Part shown: positions 29,863 to 37,597 of the stretch, in pieces
How the letters are laid out: the number at the start of each line of letters is the position of its first letter
How positions within the stretch are numbered: position 1 is the first letter of the stretch
Source of the DNA: an uncultured Phycisphaerales bacterium
Lineage (GTDB): Bacteria; Planctomycetota; Phycisphaerae; Tepidisphaerales; Tepidisphaeraceae
Assembly (NCBI GenBank): GCA_963755915.1
Contig: CAVWLP010000002.1
Coordinates: 2,880,001-2,944,000 of the forward strand
DNA length: 64,000 nt
Direction of reading: 5' to 3'
Notes under the pieces: model-generated
The model's input: the letters and a program-made list of their open reading frames with translations, nothing else
Databases searched by the model: none
Told to the model about the DNA's origin: nothing
Position numbers and translations under genes: made by a program

Positions 29863-30471
29863 CCCACCATTGGCTTGCGGCAACCGCCGAAAGCCAAGGT
29901 CGATAACCCAATCTCCTGTGCCTCAAAATGGCCGGTTTTGGCGCGCCCTCAATTGGCCGGTTTTGTGCGCCCCATGACACCGATTTCCCCGAACCGCATT
30001 TCGGCCACAACTCGGCCTTCGCCTTTGCTGCCTTACCAGGAGACGTATACAGTAAGCTCATCCGGATGCGCTTCCGTCAAAGTTAAACTTTCGCCAACCA
30101 AATTCCTCGAAATCGGCCCCGCCCCCACGCTAAAATTGCGACGCCCAGCTTAATTTTCCTTCATCCACGGATTTGCATTGACATTCGCATTTTTAGTGGC
30201 ATTTTTGCTTCCTTCCCGGGGAATAAGCGGGCGGCTTTTTGGGACGGCTTAAATAGCCCGGAGGACGGTGATGTTGCCAGAATCGAAAAGGAGCCGGTTA
30301 GAGCGATTTGCATCTGACTGCAGCGTCTGCGCCGCCTCCGGCGGCCCTTCGGGTTGCGTTCCAAAGGGTCGTCTGCCGCGTCATCACTCCTCAACGGGTC
30401 CATTTAGAACCCGCTTCGTCGCTCTTCCTTGCATCCGACCCTTTGGAACGCAACGCAGGCGCTGCACTCAG

Positions 30472-32320
30472 ATGCAAAACGCTCTAGTGTCGTTTCTTCG
30501 CCGCAAGCGATCTCGACAAGCACGTCTCATCTTCCTCGCTTGCGCTCCCTCCTTCGTCGCAGCGGCAACGAGCGCGGCCGCCTGGGGACAAATCACAGAA
30601 AGTTCCTCCAACTGGTCCGGCTACTCCACCGTGACCTCCGGGGGAAACGCCTTCACGGACGTCTCGGCAACGTTCGTCGTCCCCACCGTCAAAGCCCCTT
30701 CGTCCGGCACCGCTTATTCTTCGTATTGGGTCGGACTCGACGGCGCGACGGGCGAATCCGATCCCACGGTCGAGCAATGCGGAATCGCCGCCAACATCAG
30801 CGCCGGCCAATCTTCCGGGACCTATTTTGGCTGGATCGAATTCGCCCCCGCCGGCGAGGAGGAGATCGAAGGGCTTACCATCAGCCCCGGCAACACGATC
30901 CACACCGATGTTACCTACGAGCCTGCCGACAGCTCCTCCGGACATTACGGCTATTTGTTCGACGTCGACGACGAAACCACCGGCGTCGCCTTCGACGAGG
31001 TCGAGTACACCGCCACCAGCGATCAGCGCTCAACCGCCGAATGGATCGCCGAGGCCACATCCCTCGAGGTGCGTGGCGTCATCGAGGTGCAGCCCATGGC
31101 CAACTTCGGCAGCGTCACGCTGACCAACTGCGTCGCAGCCCTCAACGGCGGCAGCGACCAATCCGCCGAGTCCCTCGACCCAACCGGCATCGAAATGAAC
31201 CAGGGAAGCGGTGTGGTCGCCATCCCCAGCAACGTCGATTCCGACGGCGAGACATTCACGGATTACTACGCTTCCAGTTTGCCCGATCTCGTCTGGAAGG
31301 ACTCAACCGGAAATAAGCTCTGGGATTTCACCAGCACCAACTGGAACGACGGCGCTGCCGCGACCGCCTACGGAGACGCCTGCCCGGTAACCTTCAACGA
31401 CAGCAACGGGGGCAATTACTCGGTCACGCTCAACACCACGGTGAATCCCGCCTCCGTCACCGTCAGCAACAGTTCAGGAAACTACGTCATCAGCGGCGCC
31501 GGCAGCATTTCCGGCGGTGGATCCCTTAGCAAAAGCGGCAGCGATACCCTCACCCTCGATACTGCCAACAACTATAGCGGCGGCACGACCGTCTCCGCCG
31601 GAAAGTTGCTCGTCGGCGCTGCCGGAGCGCTGCCAGACGGCTCCGTCAACATCACCGGCGGAACGGTGCAGCTTGGGGCAGGCACCGGGCTGGCGACGAT
31701 CAGATCCCTTTCCGTCTCCGGCAGCGGCACCTTCGACCTGAACAACAATCACGTCATCATCAACTTCAGCGGCCAGTCCGATCCGATCGCCTCGATCACC
31801 GCCTATCTCAAATCCGGCTATAACGGCGGCGCCTGGAATGGCCCGGGCATCATCTCCTCCGCGGCACAAAATCCCACCAACGGCTTCCGCTACGGAATCG
31901 GCTGGGCCGACGGCAGCGACGGCGTAGTTGCCAACCTCTCGCCGGGACAGATTGAACTAAAATACACGCTGCTGGGTGATGCCAATCTTGACGGGTTCGT
32001 AAGCGGCACCGATTTCTCCATCCTCGCCGCCAACTTCGGTACAGCCGCTACCAATTGGGACCAGGGCAACTTCCTCTACAGCAGCTCCGTCAACGGCTCC
32101 GACTTCAGCGCCCTTGCCGCCAACTTCGGCCAGGGCGACAGCGGCGCGGACGTTCAGATTGCGCAAGCCGACATCGCTGCTCTCGATTCATTCGCGATTG
32201 CCAACGGCTTACCCCTGTCGACGATCGACGCGGTCCCCGAACCCGTCGCCGGCGCGCTACTGCTTTCCGCGGCCGCCGCCACCCTGGTGACCAGACACAG
32301 GAAGAAAACGAAATTTAACT
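30472..32320 (+). CDS. PEP-CTERM protein with G1 (glutamic/eqolisin) peptidase domain, autotransporter-associated beta-strand repeat and dockerin-like module; true stop probably near 32320
   Basis: SSNWSGY, YWVGLDG, VEQCG, TAEWIAE, FGSVTLTNC; LSKSGSDTLTL..ANNYSGGTTV; GDANLDG; VPEPVAGALLL...RHRKK. Confidence 0.82.
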
Positions 32321-32367
32321 ACCCTTCACCAATTCGAAAATTCGAATTTCGAATTTACGTCCTGAGG

Positions 32368-33081
32368 TCAATACCCCGCCGTATTCCACGAGATAATCGC
32401 CCCCTTCAAAAACCCATCCGCTCCCGCCATCTGCGCCTGCGCCGATTCCATCTGCTGCCGCGCCGCGACCACATCCGCATTCCGATAAAGCTGCGACTCA
32501 AAAACCTTCTCCTTCAGCGATAGAACCTGGTGGGTCGCCACCAGCCGAACGCGCGCGTCTGTGACCGTCGGATCATCCGCCAGCGCCTTCGCTTCCATCA
32601 CCGTGATCAACGATCCATCGTGCATCGCCTGCACCGCCGTCACGTTTCGCGTGCCTGTGCCGACGGCCGTCGAATTCACAATCGCCTGCTCTTCGGTCCG
32701 TCTCTCCGCCAGCTTTTTGTACTCCGGATCCTCATGCACCCGGCTCAGCACCGCCTCCACGGCCGCTTCGTAGTTGGCCTGTGCCGACTCGTAATCATCC
32801 TTGGCCGCCAGATAATCCCCGGAGATTTTGAAATCATCGCGTGCCCGCGAGATCAGCACCTGCAGGTCGCCCCAGCGGTTGTCATACTGGGCCTGCGCAA
32901 AGGCCGCCTGTCCCATGGCCGGCGCAAGGTTGTAAACCGCAATCGGCTGGCTGGGTTGCGCGCCCATAAACGGTGCAAATCCCGCTCCCTGCCAGGGGAC
33001 ATATCCCCCCATATTCTGGGCGAAGGCCCCGGCTGCAAAAGTCGTCAGAGCAAGGGCCGCTACGAAGGTTCGACCGAGCAT
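32368..33081 (-). CDS. Hypothetical exported, helical protein
   Basis: Signal peptide (MLGRTFVAALALTTFAAGAFAQ), GGAGG RBS upstream, Ala/Gln-rich helices. Confidence 0.7.
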   Translation of the reverse strand: MLGRTFVAALALTTFAAGAFAQNMGGYVPWQGAGFAPFMGAQPSQPIAVYNLAPAMGQAAFAQAQYDNRWGDLQVLISRARDDFKISGDYLAAKDDYESAQANYEAAVEAVLSRVHEDPEYKKLAERRTEEQAIVNSTAVGTGTRNVTAVQAMHDGSLITVMEAKALADDPTVTDARVRLVATHQVLSLKEKVFESQLYRNADVVAARQQMESAQAQMAGADGFLKGAIISWNTAGY

Positions 33082-33399
33082 AAAGACCTCCCTGCGAGAA
33101 GCTTATCCATAAGCATAAGCGTCAAAGACCGACAGCTACCGCATTATAGCGACAAGAAACGGATTCTGAACCGCCGATAACCTGTTTTCCCTCCGGCTGA
33201 TTCTTGCTCCGCTTGACGCTATGATAGCGGTGACCGATATTGAGTCGGCTCAGCGGCCTCCGCGCTGCGCGAGAGAGTGGAGCAGTAGAGAGTAGAACAG
33301 TAGATGCCCCCGCCCTGACCCTCCCCCGGAGTACCAGGGGAGGGGAGAAGAGGGAGTTACCAGGGGAGGGGATTAGAGTTGGCCGGAAACGTGCGAATA

Positions 33400-33696
33400 A
33401 TGCGAAACGCCCGACACGTCATTGCTGTAACCCTGATGGCGACGGCCATTTGCGCCGATCGCTCTCTGGCCGCCGCGCCATCCGAACCCCTGGCTTCGCA
33501 TCTCGCGGGCCGGATCATCACCAGGCTTTCAATAAAGCTCCGCAGCGTCGTGCCCGCCGTCTGCATCTACAAGCCCCGGCAATTTGGCCTCGCCTGTGCC
33601 CGGGCGGCCAAGCCGCGATTCAACCTTTTCCGCGCCGATTTTGTCTCGCCTCAGCTTTCCCCCTTCCAGTTCCGCCTCCCTCCGCCCAGCGCCTGA
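33400..33696 (+). CDS. Small leader ORF upstream of secA; candidate secretion-monitoring arrest peptide
   Basis: MRNARHVIAVTLMATAICADRSLAAA signal-like N-terminus; C-terminus SPFQFRLPPPSA; 60 nt to the secA ATG. Confidence 0.65.
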   Translation: MRNARHVIAVTLMATAICADRSLAAAPSEPLASHLAGRIITRLSIKLRSVVPAVCIYKPRQFGLACARAAKPRFNLFRADFVSPQLSPFQFRLPPPSA

Positions 33697-33755
33697 TTTT
33701 CCATTCCCGTCCGTTTTTCTGAGCTTACGCCGTAATTCTTTGATTAGAGGCGCTG
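33687..33755 (+). promoter_or_regulatory. Putative stem occluding the secA RBS
   Basis: CAGCGCCT (33687-33694) is the exact reverse complement of AGGCGCTG (33748-33755), which overlaps the AGAGG SD just before ATG 33757. Confidence 0.5.
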
Positions 33756-33756
33756 T

Positions 33757-36700
33757 ATGGCACTCAATACATCTAAAATCCTGACCTCCGTTTTCGGAAG
33801 CCGCAACGAACGGCTCCTCAAGCGCTACCACAAAGCCGTCGATCAGATCAATGCGCTGGAACCCAAAATCCGCGCCATGACCGACGTCCAGCTTCGCGAA
33901 CGCACCAAGGACCTGCGCACCGGCCTGACCCGCGGAAAAATCCGCTCCGAGGACATCCTCCTCGAGGCGATGGCCATCATCCGCGAATCGATGGACCGCA
34001 ACATCGGCATCCGCTCGATCTTCGACCCCGACAACAATTTCGATCCCGACCAGTTCGACGACGAAATGCTCGAAGCCTACGACAGCGTGCAGCGCGAGCT
34101 GATCAGCACCGGCGTCTCCTGGCGGCAGGCGCCGATCCCGCCCAAAATTTATGACGGTGTGCGCAAGCTCTTTCCCGAAAGCCGTCCGCCGTTCCGCGCC
34201 CGCTGTTTCGACGTGCAGATCATCGGCGGGCTCGTCCTTTACGAAGGTAAGATCGCTGAGATGGCGACCGGGGAAGGCAAAACGTTCGTCGCGCCGCTCG
34301 CCTGCTTCGTGCGCTGTTTGGAAGGGTATCACTGCCATGTCGTCACGGTGAACGACTATCTCGTCCGCCGCGACGCCAACTGGATTCGCCCCGCCTTCGA
34401 GAACCTCGGCCTCACCGTCGGCTTCATTCAGTCCGACATGGAGCCCGGCGGCGACACCCGGCGGGCCGCCTATAACTGCGACGTCACCTACGGCACCAAC
34501 AGCGAATTCGGCTTCGATTTCCTTCGCGACAACATGAAAGACCAGCGCCGCCCAGCAGGTGCAGGGGCCGCTTCGAGTTTGTGATCGTCGACGAGGTCGA
34601 TTCCATCCTGATCGACGAAGCCCGCACGCCGCTGATCATCAGCGGTGCCGCCCACGACGACGCGGCGAAATACCGGGCGGCCGACATCGTCGCACGTAAA
34701 GTCATGGAGATCCACAAGCCCTATGCCGCCGCCGAGGCAGCCGAGGATGCCGCCAAGCGCGCCATCAAGACCGCCGAGGGCGACGAAGACAAGGCCAAGA
34801 ACGCCGGCGAAAAAGAGGCCGCCCGCAAGCGCCAGGAGCTGTCGAAGAAGCAGCTTGAAGAGGCCGACCAGACGCAAGGAAGCGGAGACGCAGTATTACG
34901 AGGTGGAGCTGGACCGAAAAAGCGTTCACCTCACGCACGAAGGAATTGCCGCCGCACAGGAAGCCGCGGGCGTCGGGTCAGTTCTACGTCGGCAACAACA
35001 TGGAATGGCCGCATCTGATGGAGCAGTCCATGCGCGCCCACGTCGTTTACGAGCGCGACAAGGATTACGTCGTGGAGCGCGGGCAAAGGGGGACGATGGA
35101 AGTCGTCATCGTCGACGAATACACCGGCCGCAAAATGGTCGGCCGGCAATGGTCGGACGGCCTCCACCAGGCCGTCGAGGCCAAGGAGAAGGTGCCGATC
35201 AAGGAAGAAACCCAGACCCTGGCGACCATCACCCTCCAGAATTTCTTCAAGATGTACAAGATCCTGCGCCGGCATGACCGGAACCGCCCAGACCGAAGCC
35301 GAGGAATTCGGCAAGATCTACCGCCTCGACGTCGTGACCATTCCCACCAACCGCCCGGTCGTCCGCGACGACAACGAAGACCGCGTCTATCGCACCGAGC
35401 GCGAAAAATGGGATTCGATCATCGAAGAGATCAAGGATATTTCCGACAAGGGCCGCCCCGTTCTTGTCGGCACCACCAGCGTCGAAAAGAGCGAAATGCT
35501 TTCCAACATGCTGAAGCGGAAGTACGGCATCGACCATGAAGTGCTCAACGCCAAGTACCACGAGCGCGAGGCACAGATCGTCGCCGTCGCCGGGCAAAAC
35601 CATAAGAACCCGCGCGGTGAAACCGTCGGCAACGTGACCATCGCCACCAACATGGCCGGCCGCGGCACCGACATCAAGCTGACGACAGAAACAACCCAGG
35701 CAGGGGGGCTGCACGTCATCGGCACCGAGCGCCACACCGCCCGGCGAATCGACAACCAGCTCCGCGGACGCTCCGGCCGCCAGGGCGATCCCGGCTCCAG
35801 CCGGTTCTACGTGAGCCTTCAGGACGAGCTGATGAAGATGTTCGCCGGCGAATGGACCATCAAAGTCCTCGGCTGGCTCGGCATGGAAGAGGGGATGGCC
35901 ATCGAAGACAAGCGCATCAGCAAGGGAATTCTCCGCGCCAGAAAGAAAGTCGAAGAGCGCAACTTCCTCGCCCGCAAAAATCTTCTCGAATACGACGAAG
36001 TGATGGACCACCAGCGCACGACCTTCTACGGCATGCGCCAGCAAGTTCTGCGCGGGCAGGACGTCGAATCGATCATCTGGGAAATGATCGGCGAGGCGAT
36101 CGCCGATGCCGTCGATAAATACATCACGCAGGATTACGTCGCCGCCACCGTTGCCGAATGGGCTCGCATCAATTTCGAGGTCAATATCGATCCCGAAGAC
36201 CTCATCGGCAAGCGCAACATCGACGAGCTCGATCAGTACATCAAGGCCCAGGCCCGCGCCGAAGCCGAAACCAACATCACCGCCACCATCGGTGAATTCA
36301 TGGGCGAAAGCGAAAACGAAGAGGAGACCACGAAAAACTGGGACACCAAGGGCCTGCAGAGCTGGGCCATGAGCCGGTTCCACGTGAACCTCTCCCAAAA
36401 CCAAATCCGCCAGATGCACCCCGACGACGTGGAGAGCCAGTTGCGCACCGCCGCCGTCGAGCAGATCGATCACCGCGACTGCACCGGGCTAATGAAATAC
36501 CTCGCCCCCAATTTCGCCGAGCAGGAGCTGGTGAACTGGGCGAAGGAAAAGTTTAATGTCGAGATCAAGATCGAGGAGTTCGTTCTCGACCCCAAGGGCC
36601 ACAGCCTTCTGCCCGCCGAGCAGATTGTCGAGCTGATCGACAAGCGCGCCCGCTCGGCGTACGCCCGCCGGGAAATCGACTACCCCGTCGAGCACGCCCT

Positions 36701-37597
36701 CACCTACGCCTACGGCGGACCCGAAGGCTTCACCGACCATCCCTACTCCGCCGAGTACATCCAGAAATGGACCGCCAGGAAATACGGCGAGAGCGTCACC
36801 ATCGACCAGATTCGCGCCGGCACCCTCCAGCAGCTTCACGCCCGCCTCATCGCCCTCCAGGAAAAATTCGTGAAGGGGGGCGAAATGGAAAAAACCGTCG
36901 ATGCCCTCATTGCCGCCCACCCGGAGACCGAGCCCCTGCGCCTCGCCTTCAACGAACGCTTCGGCGCCAAGCTCACGCCACGCGATTTCGAGATTCAGAT
37001 CAAAACCGACGAAAAAGACACGCGGATGCTCTGGCAGTCGGCAACTCCCGAGCAGGTGCACCAGATTCTCATGGAACGCGCCCGGCTCGTGATGCGCGAA
37101 GAGCTGACCGATCTCGAGCAGTTCGTCCTCATCCAGATTTTCGACCAGAGTTGGAAAGACCATCTTTACGCGATGGACATCCTCAAAAACGGCATCGGCC
37201 TCCTCGCCTTTGCCGAGCAGGACCCGCGCGTGCAGTTCAAGAAAGAAGGTTACCGCTACTTCCAGGAGATGATGTCATCCGTGCGCGACAAGGTGACCGA
37301 CCTGATCTTCCGCGCCGCGTGGTCGGCGCCGCCCAGGCCCGCAACGCCTACAAGGAAACCGCCGCGGTTCACGAAGCCCAGGGCGGGTATGGCGTCGCCG
37401 AAAACGTCGCCGCCACTGCCTCCGCCGCGCAAGGCCAGCCCACAGGCGAAATGGACGAAGCCTCCGGCCAAACTCAGGGTGAGGCCGCCAAGGTCAAAAC
37501 CATCGTCCGCGAAGCCCCCAAGGTCGGACGCAACGACCCCTGCCCCTGCGGCAGCGGAAAGAAATATAAAAAATGTCACGGCATCGGCGTGGCGTGA
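33757..37597 (+). CDS. secA: Preprotein translocase SecA (about 1280 aa), several frameshifts (near 34540-34575, 34870-34985, 35265, 37320)
   Basis: [85 protein letters not shown]-terminal [18 protein letters not shown]. Confidence 0.97.

Follow-up and report, generated by a model that had tools for sequence, protein, structure and literature searches.

Does the short open reading frame (ORF) that stands directly before secA in a planctomycete genome encode a peptide that arrests its own translation, and by which route would such an arrest reach secA? The locus lies in a stretch of 64,000 nucleotides (nt), here called the window, from an uncultured Phycisphaerales bacterium of the family Tepidisphaeraceae (GenBank assembly GCA_963755915.1, contig CAVWLP010000002.1, positions 2,880,001 to 2,944,000 of the forward strand). 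All coordinates without a further label are counted from its first nucleotide. Judged from its sequence and from its relatives, the leader is probably an arrest peptide of the published uA_LPPP family, which would halt its own translation at a C-terminal LPPP and serve as a secretion monitor. The coupling of the arrest to secA is the weakest link of this proposal.

The leader ORF and its relatives upstream of secA

Direct reading of the sequence places the leader ORF at 33400–33696 on the plus strand, from an ATG at 33400 to a TGA at 33694–33696, which gives 98 codons. Its product starts with MRNARH followed by VIAVTLMATAICA and ends in SPFQFRLPPPSA. The secA ATG is at 33757, leaving a gap of 60 nt (33697–33756), and a Pfam search identifies the frame 3' of the leader as secA (SecA_DEAD domain, E = 1.3e-64). 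An earlier note, made from the letters of the window, had described the 98-codon ORF 60 nt before secA, and every position in it was correct on re-reading. The leader peptide matches no Pfam family up to E 0.1, and the leader together with its spacer matches no Rfam family.

Homologues were sought in two samples. The first was a six-frame search (E < 1e-4) of 40 relatives, 24 from the same family and 16 from 12 other families. It found the leader peptide in 23 of the 24 other same-family genomes, and no significant match in the 16 genomes of the 12 other families, where the best hit (E 0.008) contained internal stops. The second used a profile built from 19 homologues (alignment A1), and detected the leader in 30 of 43 family genomes versus none of 257 genomes from 23 other families of the class. 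With both samples pooled, the leader is present in 48 of 61 family genomes (G000 counted), and in the genomes sampled its homologues are confined to one family of the class. The closest relative in a contig search with the single protein (L059) also comes from an uncultured Phycisphaerales bacterium and is 95% identical.

At 48 loci in 47 genomes, the leader can be read to its C-terminus. A leader cut after residue 59 (in G005) was left out of the C-terminal counts, a weak extra match having neither the motif nor secA (G194b) was dropped, and one of the 48 loci comes from an unpublished genome (G014), on which the conclusions do not depend. All 48 loci carry [L/M]PPP followed by two to five residues and a stop, 54–224 nt upstream of the secA start. 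The motif is RLPPP at 44 loci, PLPPP at three, and PMPPP at one. The ORF is a genuine gene that is conserved in company with secA, and conservation of the ORF and of its RLPPP end, which the earlier note had named as a check on its proposal, was found. One genome (G215) holds two leader-secA copies on two contigs (L072 and L078). The two leaders differ slightly, their tails being ...RLPPPALI and ...RLPPPALIIA, and a duplication, a strain mixture, or contamination could account for the pair.

We then compared the region with short-read contigs, since secA itself is broken into several frames in the assembly (33757–37597, plus strand). The assembly has 6.6 Mb in three contigs and an estimated completeness of 81%. 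Contigs from runs X1–X3 were compared with 33200–35400; the best short-read sample may be the source of the window's own assembly, which makes the agreement not fully independent. Over 33200–33745 and 33547–33804 they show no difference and no gap, with positions 33746–33747 spanned by no short-read piece among those listed. Because of this agreement, the leader, its stop codon, and both arms of the stem described below are not assembly artefacts. A tblastn search with the 1277-residue SecA of a relative locates frame changes near 34540, 34860, 34985, 35265, and 37300–37500. One base is absent from the short-read contigs at each of 34541, 34575, 34864, 34980, and 35265; the last frame change lies outside the stretch compared. 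The frame breaks are single-base insertion errors of the assembly, and secA is intact in the organism, because the short-read contigs lack the extra bases where the frames change. This rules out a reading of secA as a pseudogene. A completeness of 81% with just three contigs fits widespread indel errors, and other ORF calls in the window therefore need caution. In the closest relative (L053 of G001, 2222–2318), an extra C in a GCC run just before TGA lengthens the ORF by 17 codons. This displacement of the stop is probably an assembly error of the same kind (G001 is 66% complete, in five contigs).

Leader anatomy and the published uA_LPPP family

Alignment A1 was used to describe the leader. 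Residues M1, A16, A36, L43, L93, P94, P95, and P96 are invariant, V10, C18, A19, D20, A25, R42, and R92 reach 90% or more, and residues 55–85 are essentially free to vary. The signal-peptide-like N-terminus (33400–33456, plus strand) is composed of the n-region MRNARH (charge +2) and a 13-residue uncharged hydrophobic stretch, residues 7–19, whose best 12-residue Kyte-Doolittle mean is 2.47 (residues 7–18). The homologues have two or three positive charges, 13–16 uncharged hydrophobic residues, and best 12-residue values of 2.2–3.2. Such an architecture is present in all 19 aligned homologues and at all 25 further loci, so that the basic and hydrophobic signal-like N-terminus proposed before is borne out in 44 of 44 homologues, the call being a hydropathy heuristic. 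A lipoprotein reading of the conserved ...AL/I-C-A-D was not adopted; a lipobox has a small residue before Cys, and here Ile or Leu precedes it.

The middle segment, residues 33–53 (HLAGRIITRLSIKLRSVVPAV, 33496–33558, plus strand), is basic and has the consensus AGRLIxRLSxNLRRVxPA in A1. With Pro95 in the P site, this segment would be 42–62 residues from the peptidyl-transferase centre, just beyond the exit tunnel. The C-terminal block is (S-P-F-x-F)-R-L-P-P-P, which in the window's leader corresponds to S87–P96 (SPFQFRLPPP, 33658–33687, plus strand); the residues ahead of Arg are well conserved in nearer genera and less so in the wider set. The second Pro comes 76 residues after the end of the hydrophobic stretch in the window's leader, 75–80 residues after it in the 19 aligned homologues, and 74–85 at the 25 further loci. 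This spacing is strikingly narrow for a region with variable sequence. A conserved signal, middle segment, and last five to ten residues around a variable stretch at 55–85 look like the pattern typical of a monitoring substrate.

Leaders of this kind have been described by Fujiwara, Tsuji, Yoshida, Takada, and Chiba (2024, Nat Commun 15:2711, PMC10987492). They screened about 30,000 GTDB genomes for upstream ORFs of secA, secDF, and yidC with an N-terminal signal and a conserved C-terminus. The family uA_LPPP occurs in the Planctomycetota orders Phycisphaerales, UBA1161, and WQYP01 (GTDB r202). Among its 52 sequences, 45 have LPPP and 50 a predicted signal, and the authors class its motif as apparently unrelated to known ones. 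The tested homologue had an fAP of 1.0 in a B. subtilis PURE system and 0.51 in E. coli PURE; the TAI in vivo was 22.4 in B. subtilis and 1.59 in E. coli. By toeprinting, the third codon of L110-P-P-P was in the P site; in the B. subtilis system, the arrest was weakened by L110A, P111A, and P111A/P113A (PMC10987492). A full-text literature search for the family name found no further work on uA_LPPP beyond this paper, the one other match being unrelated.

The window's leader has the sequence features by which the family is defined. It is a short unannotated ORF directly before secA (98 codons, a 60-nt gap, no Pfam family). LPPP lies within its last 15 residues (L93–P96 of 98), and among the 48 loci 47 have LPPP and one has MPPP, all being of the XPPP form. 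By the hydropathy heuristic it has an N-terminal signal or transmembrane segment, as do 44 of 44 homologues, and signal and arrest site are separated by more than 30 residues (76 in this leader, 74–85 in 44 of 44). By these shared features, rather than by alignment to the tested homologue, the ORF fits as an orthologue within uA_LPPP. Nothing essential differs between the two, the window's leader having 98 residues and the tested homologue its LPPP at 110–113. Because the homologue's toeprint put the P site at the third LPPP codon, the stall is predicted to occur with Pro95 (33682–33684) in the P site and Pro96 (33685–33687) in the A site. Counted from the P-site Pro, this site is three to six codons before the stop at all 48 loci.

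The class, motif, gene context, and stalling activity of LPPP secA leaders are already in print. The claim of a new planctomycete secretion monitor is not upheld, Phycisphaerales LPPP secA leaders having been published and tested in 2024, and the caveat attached to it, that such leaders might already be among surveyed candidates, was correct (PMC10987492). Of the stalling leader envisaged by the earlier note, the conserved leader stands, together with the stalling of a family member at LPPP (PMC10987492); the stem coupling as it was stated does not. For this clade, the present analysis adds the extended motif (S-P-F-x-F)-R-L-P-P-P, the 74–85-residue spacing, the conserved middle segment, and an enrichment of CCU codons described below. 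It further adds wider conservation counts, the result that no conserved helix from stall site to Shine-Dalgarno (SD) sequence was detected, and evidence that assembly errors caused the secA frameshifts. The extended motif and the fixed spacing may already appear in Supplementary Figs 7 and 33 of PMC10987492.

Two other groups of arrest peptides resemble the leader. Like the RAPP-type peptides (ApdA, ApdP, and the RQH family with RAPP, RGPP, HAPP, and QAPP), it has a C-terminal Arg and then Pro-Pro at the peptidyl-transferase centre, an N-terminal localisation signal, and a place upstream of sec genes. It differs in that the uA_LPPP toeprint has L-P-P in the P site and Pro in the A site, with Arg one residue further back than in R-A-P/P (PMC10987492), and in that Arg is replaced by Pro at 4 of the 48 loci. 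Having Leu for Ala/Gly and an extra Pro, it lies outside the RAPP-like and RQH patterns (R/Q/H-A/G-P-P, RAGP, RAPG). With SecM-secA of Enterobacterales it shares gene order and logic, a signal-bearing leader, and a predicted C-terminal arrest with Pro-tRNA in the A site, and in this genome a helix joins the 3' end of the leader to the secA SD. However, the two have no sequence similarity, R-L-P-P-P standing against FxxxxWIxxxxGIRAGP in SecM (motif from PMC10987492), and the SD-sequestering helix is not conserved in the family of the window's leader. With the C-terminus SPFQFRLPPPSA and no Pfam family at E up to 0.1, the leader is not a member of SecM.

Several points weigh against an arrest that monitors secretion. 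The tested homologue is longer than the window's leader, and the likeness between them is one of defining features. The arrest was shown on B. subtilis and E. coli ribosomes for one family member, which hardly stalled E. coli ribosomes in vivo, possibly through relief of PPP by EF-P (PMC10987492). EF-P is encoded in this genome as well, and may relieve stalling at PPP. The leader could instead be an ordinary small secreted protein, or its PPP a generic EF-P/proline pause, in either case with no feedback on secA. PPP pauses any ribosome that lacks EF-P, and for the modest stall in the E. coli system the authors suspect such an artefact, EF-P being missing from the in vitro system; on the other side, L110A weakened the arrest in the B. 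subtilis system, and B. subtilis cells, which have EF-P, still showed the arrest (PMC10987492). Leu is kept at 47 and the preceding Arg at 44 of the 48 loci, and a generic PPP pause needs neither. The conserved middle segment could reflect a function of the mature peptide, but strict synteny with secA is kept at 48 of 48 loci from dozens of genera, the middle third of the protein being free to vary, and the strongest conservation is in the last residues before the stop. A fixed spacing of 74–85 residues is also hard to explain for a mere secreted peptide. The passages of PMC10987492 on this family report no regulation of secA by uA_LPPP, the downstream regulation tested there being that of a secDF leader. 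Taken together, we consider a protein or pause of this kind very unlikely, and retain the arrest peptide as the preferred reading.

Proposed pairing between the predicted stall site and the secA Shine-Dalgarno sequence

The preferred reading can be laid out as a sequence of steps. Leader and secA would be co-transcribed, and the signal peptide, residues 1–19, would emerge from the ribosome. By homology to the toeprinted member, the ribosome would stall three codons short of the stop, Pro95 occupying the P site and the codon of Pro96 the A site. About 55–60 residues would then be beyond the tunnel, so that the signal peptide could engage SecA/SecYEG. Pulling would release the arrest, by analogy with SecM and VemP. 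Under slow export, the ribosome would dwell on 33670–33698 and secA expression would go up. In this genome, the stalled ribosome may do so by keeping a 5' stem arm (33687–33694) off a 3' arm (33748–33755) that overlaps the SD.

We inspected this stem, which the earlier note had proposed to occlude the ribosome-binding site. The 5' arm CAGCGCCT (33687–33694, plus strand) consists of the last base of Pro96, Ser97, Ala98, and the first base of the stop. It is the exact reverse complement of the 3' arm AGGCGCTG (33748–33755), giving a perfect helix of 8 base pairs (bp). The secA SD, AGAGG, is at 33746–33750, and together with the overlapping 3' arm it occupies 33746–33755 on the plus strand. CGCCTC (33673–33678) complements GAGGCG (33747–33752), and direct reading confirmed both the main and this alternative pairing. 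The minimum free energy (MFE) fold of 33650–33790 includes the 8-bp helix, although the energy of the whole region is ordinary (−21 kcal/mol, z = −0.44, 60 of 200 shuffles at least as stable). When the 28-nt stall footprint is paired with the 26-nt segment of SD and start, the duplex energy in this genome is −20.4 kcal/mol. Since this value is matched by just 3% of the remaining 28-nt windows of the leader and by 1% of 200 shuffles of the footprint, the complementarity is above chance in this genome.

A ribosome with its P site at 33682 would cover 33687–33694, its downstream edge being at about +16 nt by standard toeprint geometry. When the stalled footprint is masked, the modelled accessibility of the SD goes up from 0.23 to 0.36 in this genome, and it increases at 18 of 22 loci (mean about 0.1; partition function with footprint masking only). 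AGAGGCG at the secA SD is invariant in 12 genomes of the genus. The codons at the stall site also have a bias. CCU encodes the first Pro at 17, the second at 13, and the third at 5 of the 48 loci, compared with a genome-wide CCU share of 10%; the loci are related rather than independent, and the background share is that of one genome. CCUCC is found inside the R-L-P-P-P codons at 30 of the 48 loci. Such a preference for CCU at the first and second Pro hints at base-pairing with an SD of the GGAGG type.

Comparison with relatives weighs against the stem. In the 12-genome alignment of the genus (A2), the eight stem pairs form in 79% of cells, versus 26–53% when slid, and 125 of 500 column shuffles equal this pairing. 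Against the single G-C to U-A double change, which two genomes share (G006 and G009), stand six cells that do not pair at that position. RNAalifold retains only a 5-bp core, CGCCU/AGGCG, at −3.6 kcal/mol with no compensatory pair; this core is made up of the Ala codon and the stop on the 5' side and of the SD on the 3' side, both of which are otherwise constrained. SD accessibility is below that obtained with dinucleotide-shuffled upstream sequence (0.05 level) at just 1 of 22 loci. Across 47 loci, the footprint-SD duplex has a mean of −12.1 kcal/mol, versus −12.8 kcal/mol for other leader windows, with a median rank of 0.64; four loci are in the top 10%, and five beat 95% of shuffles. In addition, a local anti-SD arm, CGCC..CUCU, located about 15–35 nt upstream of the SD, pairs in 84.5% of genus cells, and a ribosome stalled at PPP would leave this arm paired, out of reach. 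As the 3' side of the local CGCC..CUCU / AGAG..GCG hairpin shows no variation, no covariation is possible for it.

The proposed occluding stem is present and above chance in this genome, but it is not conserved within the genus or across the 47 loci. The compensatory changes by which the earlier note proposed to check it in relatives lend it no support, RNAalifold giving no compensatory pair and a quarter of the shuffles, the 125 of 500 above, equalling the pairing. Because the helix is not conserved in relatives, we hold it to be quite unlikely as the general mechanism of the family. For this genome, we tentatively put forward the freeing of the SD by a stalled ribosome holding the 5' arm as the most likely coupling, at somewhat less than even chances.

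Spacer, promoter-like site, and other possible routes to secA

The same arrest peptide could act on transcription. Once translation has ended as usual at the leader stop, the C-rich, G-poor spacer, free of ribosomes, would let Rho load or a terminator form ahead of secA, and a ribosome stalled at LPPP near the stop would delay either. In the tna operon, a ribosome stalled on the leader TnaC near its stop delays Rho action. By mechanistic analogy, the window's leader resembles TnaC and MgtL in having its stall a few codons from the stop and a pyrimidine-rich, C-over-G spacer after it; it differs from them in implying no sensing of a ligand or ion, and in the modest skew of its spacer. Control of mgtA through MgtL and Rho, as described in a review (PMC12856214), offers a precedent. 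Between the leader stop and the secA SD (33697–33745, plus strand), the C/G ratio is 2.08. It exceeds 1 at 43 of 47 loci with a median of 1.49, versus 1.08 in the coding regions of leader and secA, and the overall make-up of the spacers is 33% C, 23% G, and 29% T. However, half of the loci have a ratio below 1.5. A stall three to six codons from the stop in 48 of 48 loci is as expected for the shielding of RNA past the stop, yet a ribosome at LPPP would cover only about 5 nt of it.

Transcriptional coupling also agrees with the lack of a conserved pairing between stall site and SD. The MFE fold of one spacer (L040 of G023, about 1430–1460) has a GC hairpin with a U run behind it, resembling an intrinsic terminator, which the consensus scan did not list; against this, the terminator scan listed nothing in the leader-secA spacers of the window and of two further loci (L038 and L040). 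On balance, transcriptional coupling appears improbable to us, and the release of the SD in this genome remains the favoured coupling.

A promoter-like site on the plus strand, TTGACG and GATATT separated by 17 nt, is located at 33213–33241 upstream of the leader. It has 9 of 12 consensus matches, and the consensus scan found two sites versus 0.3 expected. This site is a candidate start of a leader-secA transcript. Similar sites are just upstream of the leader at L038 and L040, and none is listed between leader and secA at these two loci or in the window. Promoter placement weakly suggests a joint transcript of leader and secA. A G/C-rich repeat at 33306–33354 (within 33290–33370), roughly CCCTCCCCCGG...CCAGGGGAGGGG, stands between the promoter-like site and the leader. 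It has at least 40 copies of 84–95% identity on both strands of the genome, and is a REP-like dispersed element. A match of this repeat to Pab91 of Rfam (E = 0.26), far below the gathering score, was taken as chance.

Spacing and spacer can be combined in a further reading. The roughly 76-residue distance could work as a ruler that sets the basic segment 33–53 at the tunnel exit or translocon when the ribosome is at R-L-P-P/P, and secA would be controlled through the spacer, by Rho or terminator attenuation or by a lineage-variable RNA switch, with no conserved helix. We regard this as speculative and not likely. If true, it would mean a secretion monitor with length-gauged release and a transcription-level output.

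Three further frames were noted. In a 751-residue frame at 30268–32523 (plus strand), a C-terminal VPEP motif together with a hydrophobic stretch and basic residues looks like a PEP-CTERM sorting signal; the frame continues for about 70 residues past the VPEP region, for which an assembly indel may be the cause. A divergent ORF of 237 residues (32368–33081, minus strand), located upstream of the leader region, has a signal-like N-terminus and no Pfam family. Elsewhere in the genome (G000:C2:1434183-1434512), a second, shorter SecA-like frame is present, with equivalents in most family members. It has about 644–660 residues and 44–51% identity over the motor region, and may be a SecA paralogue or a SecA2-like gene.

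With no conserved SD-masking helix detected across 47 loci, the route from arrest to secA becomes a testable question. Secretion monitors are a textbook case of the nascent chain as a force sensor. The present locus would be a further member of the LPPP class in Planctomycetota, supporting a wide but clade-restricted conservation of these leaders.

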